This document shows, piece after piece, positions 5,066-38,730 of a stretch of DNA of 62,897 nucleotides. Positions within the stretch are counted from its first letter, which is position 1; each line of letters starts with the position of its first letter. The position numbers and the translations under genes are program-made. The notes beneath the pieces are model-generated. The model was not told where the DNA came from, made no database searches, and saw only the letters and a program-made list of their open reading frames with translations. This stretch comes from Candidatus Moraniibacteriota bacterium (GTDB lineage Bacteria > Patescibacteriota > Minisyncoccia > Moranbacterales > GCA-2747515): contig JAUVJK010000001.1 in the NCBI GenBank assembly GCA_030592425.1, positions 1-62,897 of the forward strand, read 5' to 3'.

Positions 5066-5476
5066 TTACCACACTTCACAAATCACTTCACCACCAAGAC
5101 CTTTTTTCTTTGCGTCCTTACCACTCATAACGCCTTGTGATGTTGAGATCACTGCAATACCATACCCATTACGCACCTTGCGAATCATGTCATTTTTGAT
5201 GTAAACACGTTGTCCTGGCGTTGATACACGATGAATCTCTTTGATTGCTGGATCTTTTTTCGAAAGCGAGATCTGATCATATTTCAATACGATCTGAACG
5301 TTTTTGCGACCAACATGTTCTTCATCATCAATAACGTCAACTTTCTCTACTAAATTCTCACTTTCCAAAACCTTTGCAATAGCAATTTTTAGTCGCGATG
5401 CAGGAATCAACACAACAGCATGATTAGCCATCTGTGCGTTTCGGATACGTGTTAACATGTCACTGATTGGATCCAT
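5066..5476 (-). CDS. rpsH: 30S ribosomal protein S8
   Basis: DPISDMLTRIRNAQMANH...; operon position. Confidence 0.96.
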   Translation of the reverse strand: MDPISDMLTRIRNAQMANHAVVLIPASRLKIAIAKVLESENLVEKVDVIDDEEHVGRKNVQIVLKYDQISLSKKDPAIKEIHRVSTPGQRVYIKNDMIRKVRNGYGIAVISTSQGVMSGKDAKKKGLGGEVICEVW

Positions 5477-5756: not shown

Positions 5757-6314
5757 TTAGTGGTCTTCTTTCTGAATGGGAAATCCCAATGCGCGAAATA
5801 ACGCCTCTCCGGATTTCTCATTATCTGCACTAGACACGATCGTGATCTGGAACCCATAGATCTTTCGTGCGTTCTCTGCTGAAATTTCTGGAAAAATTGT
5901 ATGTTCTTTAATACCAATATTCAAATTACCATTGTGATCAATTGCTTTCATTGGAATACCTTGGAAATCACGTGTACGTGGGAGTGCTTCATTGACCATA
6001 CGATCTATGAAATGCATCATACGTGTTCCACGGAGTGTCACTTTCATACCAATCTCCTGTCCTTCACGAATCTTGAAACTTGCAATCGATCGTTTTGCTG
6101 TCGTCATTACTGGCATCTGTCCTGTAATATCGATTAATGCTTGTTTCAATTCTTTGATCGCCTCTTTCTCTTTGAGAAGTGGTCCAATACCGACATTCAC
6201 AACGATCTTATTGATACGTGGTGCCATTAATGCATTATCAAGTTTCAACTGTTTTTGCAATTCCGGCACAACAGTTTTCTGATATTTTTCTCGAGTTGTA
6301 ATAATTTTACTCAT
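5757..6314 (-). CDS. rplE: 50S ribosomal protein L5
   Basis: KIVVNVGIG..., KRSIASFKIREGQEIGMKVTLRG; operon position. Confidence 0.96.
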   Translation of the reverse strand: MSKIITTREKYQKTVVPELQKQLKLDNALMAPRINKIVVNVGIGPLLKEKEAIKELKQALIDITGQMPVMTTAKRSIASFKIREGQEIGMKVTLRGTRMMHFIDRMVNEALPRTRDFQGIPMKAIDHNGNLNIGIKEHTIFPEISAENARKIYGFQITIVSSADNEKSGEALFRALGFPIQKEDH

Positions 6315-10916: not shown

Positions 10917-11567
10917 TTAAATCGTTTCTGATTTATCTGACTTAGATGCATAGCGTTCTTCGATTCCTGATACAGCTTCTTTACTAAGGAGAATATATTG
11001 TGCATTTGCAATATCAAAAACATTCAATTGTTCTGCTGGGAGACCATTTGTTCGTGGGATATTCTTTAGTGCACGATATGATGGAGTTTCTTCTTGTGAA
11101 AAACCAACAACAACTGTTTTATCAATACCAAGTGCTTCCAACGCATCAGAAAATTTCTTTGTTTTGTTATTTTCGATCACAAGTGACGATACGACAACAA
11201 GTTTCCCCTCTCGCACTTTATCACTCAAAGCGATTGCGAGAGCTTTTTGCTTCTGTTTCCCATTGATCTTCTTGCTAAAATTTCGTGATTTGTCAGGGCC
11301 AAACATCACACCACCACCACGCCAGATCGGATTACGAATAGAGCCTGTACGTGCATTACCTGTCCCTTTTTGCTTCCATGGTTTTTTACCACCACCACGA
11401 CGTTGATCACGTGTTTTTGTATGAGCACTTCCACTGCGACGATTAGCTGATTGCGCAACATAAACCTGATGCACGAGACCATCATTTGCTGGCACACCAA
11501 AGACCGTATCACTCAGTATGATATCGCTCTCTTTTTTTCCTGCTAAATTTTTTACTTCAATTTTCAT
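10917..11567 (-). CDS. rplD: 50S ribosomal protein L4
   Basis: RRGGGKKPWKQKGTGNARTGSIRNPIWRGGGVMFGP. Confidence 0.97.
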   Translation of the reverse strand: MKIEVKNLAGKKESDIILSDTVFGVPANDGLVHQVYVAQSANRRSGSAHTKTRDQRRGGGKKPWKQKGTGNARTGSIRNPIWRGGGVMFGPDKSRNFSKKINGKQKQKALAIALSDKVREGKLVVVSSLVIENNKTKKFSDALEALGIDKTVVVGFSQEETPSYRALKNIPRTNGLPAEQLNVFDIANAQYILLSKEAVSGIEERYASKSDKSETI

Positions 11568-11595
11568 ATCCTTCCCTTATGAGAGTAAATAATAT

Positions 11596-12153
11596 TTATT
11601 GTGTGTGTACTTCAACAATGCGACCAGTAACGCCTGGAACAGCTCCTTTGAGTGCAATAATATTTTTTTCTATATCAATCTGCACGACAGTAATATTTTT
11701 TGTTGTAATACGATCTGATCCCATTCGTCCTGCCATGCGCTTTCCTTTGATCACATGTTGCGGATATGCGGAGCCAATTGATCCTGGTGAACGCAATGCA
11801 TGTCGGTGTCCATGTGTCGCTGGTCCACCTGCAAAGCCATGTCGCTTCACCACACCTTGAAAGCCTTTTCCTTTTGACACACCACTAACAGAAACTTTTT
11901 CACCAGACTCAAAGATATCAACGGTTACCTCATCTCCAACTTTCAATGTACTTTCTGTTTCACGAAATTCTTTGCGATGTTTCTTTTTTGCCGTCTTTGG
12001 CACCTCAAGACAAACAGCTTCATACTGATCAATATCCTTTGTACGGATACCACAGACAGTATTATCTGCGCAATCTATCAATGTGACATTCTGTGCACCA
12101 TCATCATTATAGATCGTTGTCATGCCGAGTTTTTTTCCGAGAATGTATTTCAT
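11596..12153 (-). CDS. rplC: 50S ribosomal protein L3
   Basis: MKYILGKKLGMTTIY..., KGKGFQGVVKRHGFAGGPATHG. ORF-track start 12180 trimmed to ATG 12151-12153. Confidence 0.95.
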   Translation of the reverse strand: MKYILGKKLGMTTIYNDDGAQNVTLIDCADNTVCGIRTKDIDQYEAVCLEVPKTAKKKHRKEFRETESTLKVGDEVTVDIFESGEKVSVSGVSKGKGFQGVVKRHGFAGGPATHGHRHALRSPGSIGSAYPQHVIKGKRMAGRMGSDRITTKNITVVQIDIEKNIIALKGAVPGVTGRIVEVHTQ

Positions 12154-12398
12154 AATTCTGTGCAATAAAAAATGGCTCACGAGAGCCGTAGGCCTTCTTC
12201 AATAAAAAGAAGGTGATCGGCCGCTCAGTATCCCTTCAGTTACAACTGAAAATAGGACTTTAACGGATCATTCTAGAACCTTCAGATTTTGAGCAATTCA
12301 AGGAGTGTATAAATTCTGATATAAGATGTACACGGATGTACATCGAATGAAGAATTTTCTACACGACGATGAAGTGTGCAAAATCTGGAGGTTCTGGT
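12154..12398 (-). promoter_or_regulatory. 245-nt structured intercistronic RNA between rpsJ and rplC, ending in a terminator-like hairpin
   Basis: 17-bp long-range helix 12275-12291 / 12379-12395 (1 mismatch). Hairpins at 12325-12344 (8 bp), 12235-12250 (6 bp) and 12193-12213 (7 bp). GC-rich hairpin GGCTC-N4-GAGCC at 12174-12187 is followed on the minus strand by ATTTTTTATT, 13 nt before the rplC ATG. Confidence 0.4.
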
Positions 12399-12722
12399 CT
12401 ACATTTTAATTTCAATATCAACTCCAGCGGGAAGATCAAGATTTGTGAGATCATTGATCGTTTTCGGAGATGGATTCATGATGTCAATAAGGCGCTTATG
12501 CGTTCGCATTTCAAACTGTTCACGTGCCGTTTTATTGACAAATGTCGAACGGTTAACAGTCACTTTCTTGATTGCTGTTGGGAGCGGGACAGGTCCAGTA
12601 ATCTCTGCGCCAGTGCGCTGAGCCGTTTCTACAATTAGTTTTGCTGACTGGTCAATTACCTTATTGTCATAGGACTTGATCTTGATACGGATCCTTGTCG
12701 CTACTTCCTCTTTTTTAGCCAT
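12399..12722 (-). CDS. rpsJ: 30S ribosomal protein S10
   Basis: [52 protein letters not shown]-track start 12782 trimmed to ATG 12720-12722 (typical S10 length). Confidence 0.93.
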
Positions 12723-12894
12723 CGCTATCTTTCTTTTATTATAAATTGACTGTATTCTTGTCATGTCGTTCACGAGTGACATGATTTACTTGCTCTATAT
12801 TATCTACAAAAAATAATATTCTTAATATTATTTCTGAAAGATATTGTACAAGCAATAATGTGCTTCGCTTTCGAAGCACACAATGCTTTTACAA

Positions 12895-14085
12895 TTATTT
12901 GACGATCTTTGTTGCAACACCAGCACCTACAGTACGTCCACCTTCACGAATAGCGAAGCGCATACCTTCTTCCATTGCTACTGGCACAACCAATTTTACG
13001 CTCAAAGTTACTGTATCTCCAGGCATGACCATCTCTGTTCCTTCTGGAAGTGTCACATCACCAGTCACATCCGTTGTACGAATATAGAATTGTGGCTTAT
13101 AACCTTTAAAGAATGGTGTATGTCGTCCACCCTCTTCTTTTGTCAAAATGTATACTTCGCCTTCAAATTCTGTATGTGGAGTAATTGATCCTGGTTTTGC
13201 AAGTACCTGTCCACGCTCCACATCTTCTTTCTTTGTTCCACGAAGAAGAATTCCTGCGTTATCACCAGCTTCACCACGATCAAGTTGTTTATTGAACATT
13301 TCTACACCTGTAACCGTTGTTGTCTGTGTGTCACGAATACCAACGATCTCAACTTCCTCATTAATATTGACAACACCTCGCTCAATGCGTCCTGTAACAA
13401 CAGTACCCCGTCCTTCAATTGAGAAAATATCCTCAATCGGCATCAAATATGGCTTTTCCGTATCACGTTCTGGTGTAGGGATCTTTTCATCAAGTGCCTC
13501 GATGAGATCGAGGATTGGTTTTGCATCAGCATCATCAACAGATGTTGTTTCAAGTGCTTTAATTGCGCTACCTTGGATCACTGCAGCATTATCTCCATCA
13601 AATTCATATTTTGTAAGAAGTTCACGTACCTCAGCTTCGACGAGCTCGATCAATTCTGTATCATCAACCATATCAACCTTATTGATGAAGACAACAATCT
13701 CAGGAACTCCAACTTGACGCGCAAGCAAAATATGCTCACGTGTCTGTGGCATTGGTCCGTCTGTTGCAGAAACAACGAGAATCGCACCATCCATCTGCGC
13801 TGCACCAGTGATCATGTTCTTGATATAATCAGCATGTCCTGGACAGTCTACGTGCGCGTAATGACGCGTCTCTGAATTGTACTCACAGTGAGCAGTTGCA
13901 ATTGTGATACCTCGTTCTTTTTCCTCTGGAGCGTTATCAATCTCATCAACGTTACGCTTTTCTGCTAATCCTTTCAAAGAAAGAACGTGTAGAATTGCAG
14001 CTGTCAATGTTGTTTTACCATGATCAACGTGACCAATGGTTCCAACGTTTACATGCGATTTACTACGATCAAATACCTCAGCCAT
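12895..14085 (-). CDS. tuf: elongation factor Tu
   Basis: 396 aa with [28 protein letters not shown]. Confidence 0.99.
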
Positions 14086-14261
14086 ATTTTTGATTTATTA
14101 CGTTCACGTGCGGATATATATCAAAAGATTCCGCCGCGACTACGCGAATTAATTATAGTTATTATTATCTTTTTACGAATAGGCACAGTGTACCCTATTT
14201 CTTTTTTCTTGGCAAGAGTTGACGCCACATAAAACTGTGGATATCTTTTCCAAGTTCATCA

Positions 14262-14290
14262 ACTGTAACAATCAATCAAATTCTTGTCAA
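14262..14290 (-). promoter_or_regulatory. candidate sigma-70-type promoter upstream of tuf
   Basis: Minus strand reads TTGACA (14290-14285), 17 nt, TACAGT (14267-14262). Sequence match only. Confidence 0.4.
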
Positions 14291-14334
14291 GTATTAACGT
14301 GCAGGAGCAGTCTATTCAAAATATATATTCCTCC

Positions 14335-15132
14335 TTATTCCTCTTCAAACGCTATTTCAAGCTCTTCTCTTTTAGGTATATCAGTCATAATCGCTTTTAA
14401 TACTCGCACTAATTCCATAGCCTTCACTTCCTGATTTGGTTCACTGTTATTATCCTCGTGAATATGAATATTTATTTCATCCTCTGGCATATCCCCAGAT
14501 GTCAGTGTCAACATGCCACTGCGATTCTCTTGTACGATCGACTTTAATACCTGCGCCTCTCTTCCCGATATATCTAATGTATCAATAAATGATTCATATT
14601 CTTGTGGCATTCTTTCTAATCGCTCCTTTGCTTCTGCCATTTCGGCAAATTTATTTATTGGTAACTTCTTTTCTTCCATTTCATACATTTTTGCAAGAAG
14701 CACTTGCTCCTTTTCAGAAAGAGTTCCTTCATTTACACCAATTAGCTTTAGATAAGCCGTTTTCATTTCTTGTGAAGTGTAATCACCACTCAAAATGAAT
14801 GTCTCTGTAAATTCATTGATCATTTCATCATCAAGTGACAGGTCGGAAGTATTCATTTCCGACGCTTTCTCAGATGAGATCGAAAGTGTGATCATCGTCG
14901 CAAATCTACTAACAGGAAACTTTTGACTCTCCATCTCTCGCATTTTTGATAAAATCTTTTCCTCTTTTTCAGACAACTCATTAGCTTCTTCATGATCATT
15001 CTCAAAAAGAGCAAGATAAGCTCGCGTCACATCGTGCTGAGTACAATTTTCTCGATCCAAAAACAGTGAAAAATCTTCCTGCATCTGATCATCAACAGAT
15101 TTCACGCCTGGTATTTGTTCGTATCCATTCAT
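14335..15132 (-). CDS. hypothetical acidic protein with an internal tandem domain duplication
   Basis: 265 aa, very Glu/Asp-rich. aa 21-80 and 108-165 align (TRAYLALF...LSEKEEKILSKMREMESQKFPVSRFATM vs KTAYLKLI...LSEKEQVLLAKMYEMEEKKLPINKFAEM). No known motif. Confidence 0.7.
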   Translation of the reverse strand: MNGYEQIPGVKSVDDQMQEDFSLFLDRENCTQHDVTRAYLALFENDHEEANELSEKEEKILSKMREMESQKFPVSRFATMITLSISSEKASEMNTSDLSLDDEMINEFTETFILSGDYTSQEMKTAYLKLIGVNEGTLSEKEQVLLAKMYEMEEKKLPINKFAEMAEAKERLERMPQEYESFIDTLDISGREAQVLKSIVQENRSGMLTLTSGDMPEDEINIHIHEDNNSEPNQEVKAMELVRVLKAIMTDIPKREELEIAFEEE

Positions 15133-37221: not shown

Positions 37222-38730
37222 CTATTTACGACGTGAGACCTTCACTGTTGCATTTAACCCCCTCTTTATAAGTTTGATAACCTTCTCTACAGCAATTGTC
37301 TCTTGTGTTCCGTTCATCATGTTCTTTACGATTACTGTACCATCCAATGCCTCCTTTTGTCCAATGATAAGCGTAATATCAACACCTAGCTTGTTTGCGT
37401 GACGCATCTGAGCCTTCAAAGCACCCCGACCAAAGCTCTCTGCAACAAGAATGCCATTTTTTTCCAATTCAGAAAAAAGGCAAAGACTTTTTTTCTTTCC
37501 TAGGTCACCAAGTTGTGCCAAATAAACACGTGGCTTTGGTGGCGTATATTCACGTGCTTTTACACGTTTCATCTCGATCACGAGACGATCCAAACCAATC
37601 CCAAAACCAATTGCTGGCGTTCGTTCGCCACCCAATGTCTCGATTAAGCCATCATAACGACCACCACCACCGAGAGAATGCCTTTTGCTTCCTTCTTCAC
37701 CAGACCAGATCTCAAAGACTGTGCGCGTATAATAATCAAAGCCTCGTACAAGTCGCGGGTTAATTACATATGGCAAATCCAATTCATCTAAATATTCTAA
37801 AAGATTTTTGAAATGTGTCCGTGATTCAGTATCAAGGTGATCAATCGATTGTGGCGCGCTTCCAGAGACTTGTGCACATTTATCTTCTTTACAATCCAAA
37901 ATACGCATTGGATTTGTTGTTAGTCGTGTACGACACGTCTGACACAATTTTCTTTTTTTCGATGTTAAATATGCTGTCAAAAGATTGACATATTCTTTGC
38001 GACATTCTGGTGTTCCAATGGAATTCACTTGAAACTGAATTTTTTTGAGACCAAGACCTGTAACAATACGATACGCTAGTTGAATGATCTGCGCATCAAG
38101 AATCGGGTCCTCTTCACCAAGAATGTCAAAATTCGCTTGCCAGTGCTCGCGATAACGACCTTCTTGCGGTCGATCGTAACGATAGAGCTGCCCTGTTGTA
38201 AAAAGTTTGATTGGCTTCGGCAATACATTCATACCATGTTGAATATATGCACGACCAACACTTGCTGTAAATTCTGGACGCAATGCAACATTATCATGAC
38301 CTTTCGTTTTGAATGTGTACATTTCCTTATCAACAATATCTGTCCCCTTCCCAATTGGACGCTCAAAAAGGTTCTGAAATTCAACAACTGGTGTGTCAAT
38401 CCGTTGAAAACCATATTCATTCTGTGCACGATCAAGAATACGACGAATCTGCTGCCAGTATGATTGTTCCCCTGGTAAAATGTCTCGCATTCCTCGCACC
38501 GTCTGTAAGATGAGCTCTTGTTCCATCTTTACTTCCTTTGGCGTTTCATTCTTTTTTTCAGCAGTAACCACATTCTTTTGTTGTAGCTTCTGCGCAGATT
38601 TTTTCTTTGTAGACTTTTTTACAATTTTCTTTTTATTTATTTTTTTTACAGGCTTTTTCTTCTTCGTCACAACTTTCTTTTTTGTAGCTCTCTTTGTAGC
38701 CACTTTCTTCCGTGATGTTTTCTTTACCAT
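37222..38730 (-). CDS. hisS: histidyl-tRNA synthetase with 68-aa Lys-rich N-terminal extension
   Basis: VRGMRDILPGE, ALRPEFTAS, YRYDRPQEGRYREHWQ, GGGGRYDGL. An alternative start at M69 (38526) would remove the extension. Confidence 0.92.
   Translation of the reverse strand: MVKKTSRKKVATKRATKKKVVTKKKKPVKKINKKKIVKKSTKKKSAQKLQQKNVVTAEKKNETPKEVKMEQELILQTVRGMRDILPGEQSYWQQIRRILDRAQNEYGFQRIDTPVVEFQNLFERPIGKGTDIVDKEMYTFKTKGHDNVALRPEFTASVGRAYIQHGMNVLPKPIKLFTTGQLYRYDRPQEGRYREHWQANFDILGEEDPILDAQIIQLAYRIVTGLGLKKIQFQVNSIGTPECRKEYVNLLTAYLTSKKRKLCQTCRTRLTTNPMRILDCKEDKCAQVSGSAPQSIDHLDTESRTHFKNLLEYLDELDLPYVINPRLVRGFDYYTRTVFEIWSGEEGSKRHSLGGGGRYDGLIETLGGERTPAIGFGIGLDRLVIEMKRVKAREYTPPKPRVYLAQLGDLGKKKSLCLFSELEKNGILVAESFGRGALKAQMRHANKLGVDITLIIGQKEALDGTVIVKNMMNGTQETIAVEKVIKLIKRGLNATVKVSRRK

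Follow-up and report, generated by a model that had tools for sequence, protein, structure and literature searches.

Between the genes for ribosomal proteins S10 and L3, an ultra-small Candidatus Moraniibacteriota bacterium (Patescibacteria) carries a long intergenic spacer, which raises the question of whether the RNA transcribed from this spacer controls the ribosomal protein (r-protein) genes that follow it and, if so, which protein it would sense. The window, i.e., the whole stretch of DNA that was analysed (62,897 nucleotides), belongs to a 907-kb genome assembly of 97 contigs that is 91% complete, and the named sequences closest to its L3 come from MAGs of the Parcubacteria and Patescibacteria groups. 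On the minus strand, rpsJ (S10; 12399-12722; Pfam PF00338, E = 1.6e-35) is followed by a 245-nt spacer (12154-12398), by rplC (L3; 11596-12153; open reading frame and Pfam) as the first gene downstream and, on the same strand, by rplD, rplW, rplB, rpsS, and rplV, on to rplE (5757-6314 in Pfam-based gene calls), rpsN, and rpsH. A sequence-only reading of this DNA had described the spacer as highly structured and free of a credible open reading frame, and had offered a relocated r-protein-responsive attenuator, possibly governed by L4, another cis-regulatory RNA, or a small inserted palindromic element as explanations. As a description of the spacer, this reading was borne out. Open reading frames of at least 30 aa that touch the spacer are only overlaps or noise, and the minus-strand RNA folds at -83 kcal/mol as compared to -52.4 +/- 4.3 kcal/mol for 200 dinucleotide shuffles (z = -7.17). 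The fold contains the 17-bp helix (12379-12395 with 12275-12291) that encloses a perfect 8-bp hairpin (12325-12344), a hairpin at 12235-12250, a hairpin at 12193-12214 and a terminator-like hairpin, GGCTC-TCGT-GAGCC (12174-12187), that is followed by ATTTTTTATT (12164-12173). The spacer on the other side of rpsJ, between tuf and rpsJ, holds a 10-bp palindromic hairpin of its own (GUGUGCUUCG-aaag-CGAAGCACAU; 12858-12881), which can form on both strands and has no proper U-run.

A long rpsJ-rplC spacer was found in all 29 relatives examined, which represent 12 families of the order, with lengths of 141-412 nt; short junctions, which together with scattered copies of the element the sequence-only reading had named as evidence against a regulatory role, were not seen among them. 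A long imperfect hairpin of approximately 124 nt in the window's spacer (12273-12396, minus strand; -43.7 kcal/mol in our folds) is by contrast specific to its lineage: the spacers of relatives, when read directly, carry either other hairpins of unrelated sequence at this place or none. This hairpin, which includes the 17-bp helix, is long and near-palindromic, and together with the unrelated sequences in relatives it could suggest that the spacer, or the stretch 12273-12396 by itself, arose by insertion of a palindromic or mobile repeat that regulates nothing. We consider such an origin very improbable. BLAST found the spacer sequence, long hairpin included, in a single copy in the 907-kb assembly and yielded no real nucleotide-level match to either in 40 relatives, and the base of the hairpin (AGAACCUCC...AGGUUCU) is also present in the post-rpsJ hairpin of a locus from another genus (L031, genome G019), the remainder of which differs, suggesting descent over insertion. 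The hairpin at 12273-12396 is treated here as an accessory, lineage-specific feature outside the conserved switch, with a possible role in processing or stability. Since BLAST returned no real spacer matches, a structure model was needed to search for homologs.

The spacers of all 29 relatives share a common block, which consists of a helix (P1), the letters U(U/A)AAGUC, a hairpin (P2) of very variable length, the letters GAUACU-N-A, and the return strand of P1; downstream of this block follow one or two hairpins and then a hairpin with a U-run. In the window the block forms a 55-nt element (12217-12271, minus strand) in which P1, an internal loop, the P2 hairpin (with 12235-12250 as its tip), a second internal loop, and the P1 return strand (P1') follow one another, and which is matched by a covariance model of the element, R1, with 43.2 bits (E = 4.9e-7), the sole R1 match in the genome. 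Of 151 sampled genomes of the order, 131 have one R1 match each and no more, and some of the genomes that R1 missed (G031, G002, and G016) do carry the element or a variant of it. Wherever flanking genes were checked, the element lies between rpsJ and rplC (54/54 loci). In a class-wide sample (151 genomes), R1 matched nothing outside the window's order except two genomes from a single other family, both of which also have the match between S10 and L3; a phylum-wide sample scanned with R1 added nothing further. The core is thus orthologous and fixed in position across the order, and the dispersed copies and variable site occupancy of a REP- or MITE-like mobile repeat were not seen, so that the inserted palindromic element proposed for this spacer can be rejected for the core. 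A locus of the window's family (L190, genome G006, genus g7) has kept the terminator (GAUGGCUUUGGUAGCCGUUUUUUUG) in its rpsJ-rplC spacer and shows no recognisable S8-like core, which could represent loss or strong divergence of the sensor.

Conservation of the element extends to its base pairing. An alignment of 23 cores made with MAFFT (A1), which was not fitted to the structure and is the basis of the pair counts that are independent of R1, has 89% of cells paired as compared to 33-52% with slid partners, and both partners vary in 9 of 13 pairs. In an alignment of 54 leaders (A2) that was fitted to R1 and is hence biased toward the structure, pairing of the type seen in the S8 binding site of 16S rRNA (A596-U644, G597-C643, U598-A640, and C599-G639, with 641 and 642 bulged; E. 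coli numbering) gave 90% of cells paired (25-47% with slid partners) and changes on both sides at 12 of 15 pairs; these double changes are located in the flanking helices, and the independent A1 count agrees in direction. Covariation thus supports P1 and P2. The 17-bp helix and the inner 8-bp hairpin, which the sequence-only reading had stressed as key features, are not conserved, and the conserved core corresponds to a hairpin to which it gave only passing mention. A scan of 11000-14500 against Rfam 15 at E <= 10, a check that had been proposed to reveal known r-protein leaders, matched no such family and returned only chance microRNA and snoRNA look-alikes.

The letters that are held constant in the internal loop point to a specific protein. 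In the window, the 5' core is AAAGUC (12256-12261, minus strand), where E. coli 16S positions A595, A596, G597, U598, and C599 correspond to 12260, 12259, 12258, 12257, and 12256, respectively, and the 3' core is GAUACU (12227-12232, minus strand), where G639, A640, U641, A642, C643, and U644 correspond to 12232, 12231, 12230, 12229, 12228, and 12227. The AAGUC and GAUACU of the leader are identical to E. coli 16S 595-599 and 639-644, within helix 21, where GUUAAGUC begins at 592 and GAUACUGG at 639. Among the 54 aligned leaders, A595, A596, G597, and U598 as well as A640, A642, C643, and U644 are invariant, C599 and G639 are each kept in 53, and at position 641, 51 leaders have U and three have A. 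The core of the S8 site has been defined by the triples (G597-C643)U641, where an isosteric base may replace U641, and A595(A596-U644) and by the invariant A642 (PMC4176348). The leader has the letters for both: G597-C643 with a base at 641 and A642 are present in the sequence, the triple itself not being visible from letters, and A595, A596, and U644 are A, A, and U in 54/54 aligned leaders. As in helix 21, these conserved letters form an asymmetric internal loop that interrupts a helix and has helices on both sides.

One lineage (L041 and L087) carries UAUCGUCC...GGAUACGUAG, in which C596-G644 replaces A596-U644 and is accompanied by U595; judged by its letters, this is a compensatory change, in a core that is otherwise invariant, at a pair predicted by the S8 model. 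Two genomes (G002 and G016) have U595 together with A596-U644. A C596-G644 pair is also known in nature, as Thermus helix 21 has the variant G595(C596-G644), and the same S8 element is present in spc mRNA (PMC4176348). The gene for the proposed effector, rpsH (S8; 5066-5476, minus strand; Pfam PF00410, E = 3e-44), lies approximately 6.7 kb downstream of the element, and the encoded protein, which can be aligned over its length to S8 chains of solved structure, has kept the S-T-S, RVY, and GGE motifs, which contact RNA in solved complexes (PMC4176348).

At the level of the whole element, the match to helix 21 is weak by score. A comparison of R1 with the E. coli rrn operon gave a full-length alignment to 16S 585-653, i.e., to helix 21, with only 6.6 bits (E = 4.6); this score is low because of the long helix 21 insert, and the assignment to helix 21 is based on the core letters together with the architecture. 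The E. coli rrn operon contains AAGTC...GATACT once, at 16S 595-644. Chance matches to the bare pattern AAGTC-N(4-34)-GATACT are not rare, with 0.73 expected per 63 kb. A second match to this pattern in the window (37828-37871, minus strand), which is unsupported by R1, is probably noise at the approximately 0.7 matches expected by chance. Among the named genomes that the L3 search returned (L089-L166), long rpsJ-rplC spacers (100-520 nt) are also common, namely in Flavobacteriia, Chitinophagaceae, and a number of Saccharibacteria MAGs; a crude regular expression found no S8-like core in the long spacers of named Saccharibacteria, Bacteroidota, and other bacteria, and other elements probably sit in these spacers.

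Helix 21 of the order itself was read from the 16S rRNA genes of 14 relatives (L168-L183); the 16S rRNA gene of the window's genome is unassembled. With UUAGUC...GAAACGG, as compared to UUAAGUC...GAUACUGG in E. coli, it has one A fewer, has lost U644, and has A at 641; when the letters are compared, the leader is closer to the canonical bacterial S8 site than the cells' own rRNA site is. R1 did not recover helix 21 in the 16S loci of 15 relatives because, as the direct reading indicates, helix 21 is non-canonical in these organisms.

Resemblances to other rRNA sites were also considered and set aside. R1 gave no match on the genome's own 23S rRNA (L051, G000:C77:24442-27528), which speaks against mimicry of the L3 or L4 sites on that molecule. 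Resemblances to E. coli 23S 1005-1026 (CCCUAAAUCUAUACUCAGUGGG in the own sequence) and to 23S at 427 (UAAAUACU; UAAAUAUU in the own 23S) were weak, found by eye, and post hoc; both were met before the match to the S8 site and show that such resemblances can arise post hoc. The own 23S rRNA is 3087 nt long as compared to the 2925 positions of the model, and two additional stretches stand out when it is aligned pairwise to its E. coli counterpart: one of approximately 61 nt close to E. coli position 293, and one that is rich in A+U and lies around own positions 2460-2560. The sequence GUUAAAGUCC resembles the reverse complement of boxA, and a boxA/NusE reading was dropped as it would require the wrong strand. 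Mimicry of 16S helix 36 (GGGUUAAGUCCC) was dropped because UUAAGU forms a hairpin loop there.

Because the invariant letters match the S8 site of helix 21, and nothing of this kind is known for L4, S8 rather than L4 is the likely effector. The alternative that this is an r-protein attenuator with an effector other than S8, such as L4 or, as the product of the first downstream gene, L3, and that the resemblance to helix 21 arose by coincidence or from a common RNA fold, appears unlikely to us. It would fit the position of the element directly before rplC-rplD, the control of the E. coli S10 operon through attenuation by L4 (PMC3616713), and a candidate archaeal L4 leader located before rplC (PMC7247131), as well as the weak score against helix 21 and the mismatch, at three positions, between the leader core and helix 21 of the order itself. 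It would not explain, however, why all 11 core letters coincide with those of the S8 site, with strand order and helix-loop-helix context shared as well, or why the variant of the core carries the C596-G644 pair of a natural S8 site, and R1 detected no resemblance in the genome's own 23S rRNA.

The preferred effector, S8, would act through the 3' part of the spacer, where an intrinsic-terminator-like hairpin, GGCUC-ucgu-GAGCC, is followed by AUUUUUUAUU (together 12164-12187, minus strand; consensus scan), and the run stops 10 nt short of the rplC ATG. In relatives, a script called a hairpin that directly adjoins a T-run, with a few mis-calls, in 48 of 52 distinct leaders, often with the form ...CUGGCU-loop-AGCCAG-UUUUUUAUUUG; a G+C-rich hairpin with a U-run, as is typical of attenuators, is thus found upstream of the putatively regulated gene. 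Between the element and the terminator lies P3 (ACCUUCUU-uuuauu-GAAGAAGG; 12193-12214, minus strand), which the folds place inside a proposed antiterminator. The 5' strand of this antiterminator, GAGCGGCC (12219-12226, minus strand), includes the 3' strand of P1 (AGCGG, 12221-12225), and its 3' strand, GGCC-uacg-GCUC (12183-12194, minus strand), overlaps the 5' arm of the terminator; both strands were identified by duplex prediction and in folds, the 5' strand in the fold of a truncated transcript. At -13.1 kcal/mol, this duplex is equalled by 3% of shuffles and 0.4% of windows of the locus. A window transcript that is cut before the 3' arm of the terminator folds into the antiterminator with P1 open.

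Relatives have kept this pairing by covarying it. In 47 distinct leaders, the duplex between P1' and the terminator arm is equalled by few shuffles and few locus windows (median 2% for each), and it occurs in versions that differ by lineage, including AGCUAGAU/AUCUGGCU, GAGCGACC/GGUCaGCUU, UAGCCAG/CUGGCUA, and UAGCC/GGCUA. The letters that pair with the 5' arm of the terminator lie at and just past the P1 3' strand, so that an alternative pairing which sequesters the terminator arm competes with the sensor helix, the overlap with P1' being small in many lineages (just 2-4 nt in most). The window and genus g4 accordingly show a clearer mutual exclusion of P1 and the antiterminator than most lineages do. 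In model terms, the layout of P1, antiterminator, and terminator is the usual anatomy of an attenuator in which a ligand that locks P1 would favour the terminator. For full-length window RNA, the minimum-energy fold is P1 with P3 and the terminator (-35.3 vs -26.1 kcal/mol); as the terminator state is already the minimum-energy state in this RNA, regulation would have to be kinetic.

The same folds could be read in terms of a constitutive structured junction with no switch, in which, for example, a partial terminator fixes the ratio of tuf-rpsJ to downstream expression, the hairpins serve processing or stability, and the S8-like site stores S8 or seeds assembly. That the terminator is the minimum-energy fold of the window RNA even when no protein is present would agree with such a junction, as would the slight overlap of P1' and the antiterminator in many lineages, the long stable hairpins of unrelated sequence that follow rpsJ in many relatives, and promoter-like sites upstream of or inside some relatives' leaders that suggest a boundary between transcription units. 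A plain terminator, however, does not need a pairing between P1' and the terminator arm that is kept through covarying versions, and the strict invariance of an adjacent loop that resembles a protein-binding site is typical of autoregulatory leaders; overall, we regard a constitutive junction as rather unlikely.

The promoter-like sites are of two kinds. In L022-L036, L188, and L189 (relatives from the window's family), a conserved site of the form TTGACA-N17-TA(T/C)(A/T)(A/C)T is located between the S8-like site and the terminator, within hairpins, and transcripts that start from it would skip the S8-like site yet meet the terminator; genus g4 (L033, L035, L037, and L043) instead has TTGCAx-N17-TAAAAT/TATACT upstream of the motif. 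The window has neither type of site, and no sigma-70-like promoter was found on the minus strand of its spacer. A promoter-like site inside the leaders of relatives is unexplained by a simple attenuator model.

Taken as a whole, the conserved covarying motif, the conserved terminator, and the covarying antiterminator pairing argue for the r-protein attenuator or cis-regulatory RNA that the sequence-only reading had suggested, though not for a relocated E. coli S10 leader. We consider it reasonably probable that the spacer acts as a transcription attenuator for autoregulation, with a sensor modelled on the S8 site of 16S helix 21, such that free S8 would lock P1 and thereby favour the terminator; we infer S8 binding and regulated termination, while the conserved element, the identity of its core, and the terminator and antiterminator pairing rest on sequence analysis. 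By default, during transcription of the tuf-rpsJ unit, the antiterminator (12219-12226 with 12183-12194) would form and polymerase would continue into rplC and the roughly 20 r-protein genes after it, including rpsH. S8 in excess of free 16S rRNA would bind P1, the loop, and P2 and would hold the P1 3' strand; with this strand held, the antiterminator could not form, and the terminator (12174-12187 with its U-run) would stop transcription before rplC. Titration of S8 by 16S rRNA would restore read-through by the polymerase. With a copy of the S8 site wired to a terminator, the leader would probably constitute an undescribed feedback switch for the main r-protein cluster.

The element shares features with several known systems. 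The E. coli S8 operator on spc mRNA, located at the rplE start (Cerretti 1988 and Merianos 2004, as cited in PMC4176348 and PMC3616713), overlaps the rplE start, represses translation, and is restricted to Gammaproteobacteria (PMC3616713). Like the leader, this operator copies the S8 site of helix 21 into mRNA, and both combine an internal-loop core that is conserved with a distal stem that varies. In both cases, the S8 gene lies further downstream within the cluster that is controlled, and the logic is that of negative feedback through competition of rRNA and mRNA for the r-protein. The two differ in location, the operator overlapping the rplE start codon and the leader element lying before rplC, 13 genes upstream of rpsH, and in output, which is translational repression with coupling and retroregulation for the operator and would be an intrinsic terminator with an antiterminator for the leader. 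They also differ in strand order, as the leader has AAGUC first, like 16S rRNA, whereas the operator has its A-A strand at +80/+81 and its U at +11 (PMC4176348), and in lineage, with the leader found in Patescibacteria and the E. coli-type operator, set apart here by its published description, being narrowly gammaproteobacterial. In the window, neither overlap with the rplE start nor a layout for translational repression was seen, as the sole R1 match lies before rplC and its putative output is a terminator. With 16S helix 21 itself (E. coli nt 588-651, the primary S8 site), the leader shares the core letters, the hairpin composed of helix, asymmetric loop, and helix, and the strand order; it differs in having a short and variable P2 (7-50 nt) in place of the conserved helix 21 extension and an extra A or U before A595.

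With regard to output, a parallel is the gammaproteobacterial S10 leader, in which an r-protein-binding hairpin is likewise followed by a terminator that throttles rplC-rplD and the genes downstream. The E. coli S10 leader, however, is located upstream of rpsJ, depends on L4 and NusA, comprises hairpins HA-HG, and has no antiterminator described, whereas the element follows rpsJ; an upstream position and hairpins HD and HE were not found here, and no similarity was detected with Rfam. A candidate archaeal L4 r-leader (Archaeoglobi; Eckert and Weinberg 2020, PMC7247131) also lies directly upstream of rplC-rplD-rplW-rplB but has a different motif, and its ligand was assigned by precedent only and rated uncertain by the authors (PMC7247131). 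By analogy with these systems, the element would be like the S8 operator in its recognition and like the S10 leader in its output, and is a member of neither family. A survey that reported 20 new r-leaders included none for S8 and none in the Patescibacteria phylum (PMC7247131), and no published description of a pre-rplC element of this kind was found in the literature.

According to a 2024 review, it is not known how the spc genes are regulated in organisms other than E. coli and Vibrio, and phylogenetic work on S8 autoregulation has seen no progress (PMC10931766). Against this background, we see an even balance for and against a broader proposal, namely that, in one Patescibacteria order of the Parcubacteria type, S8 governs the whole fused S10-spc cluster by attenuation from a single site before rplC, with the leader keeping a canonical S8 site while the cells' own helix 21 has lost one A and U644, such that the operator may preserve the ancestral site or have an affinity for S8 no lower than that of the rRNA. 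If true, S8 autoregulation by attenuation before rplC would be a mode undescribed in any organism and an independent evolutionary solution, in which the same protein-RNA recognition is used in another place and termination replaces translational repression, in a phylum whose genomes are reduced and which lacks a cultured model. The element would be a candidate for a new RNA family in the annotation of Patescibacteria genomes and, as an RNA of approximately 55 nt with a clear mutational map, is suited to experiments with purified S8; it would also offer a natural case for asking whether an mRNA mimic follows changes in the rRNA site that it copies.
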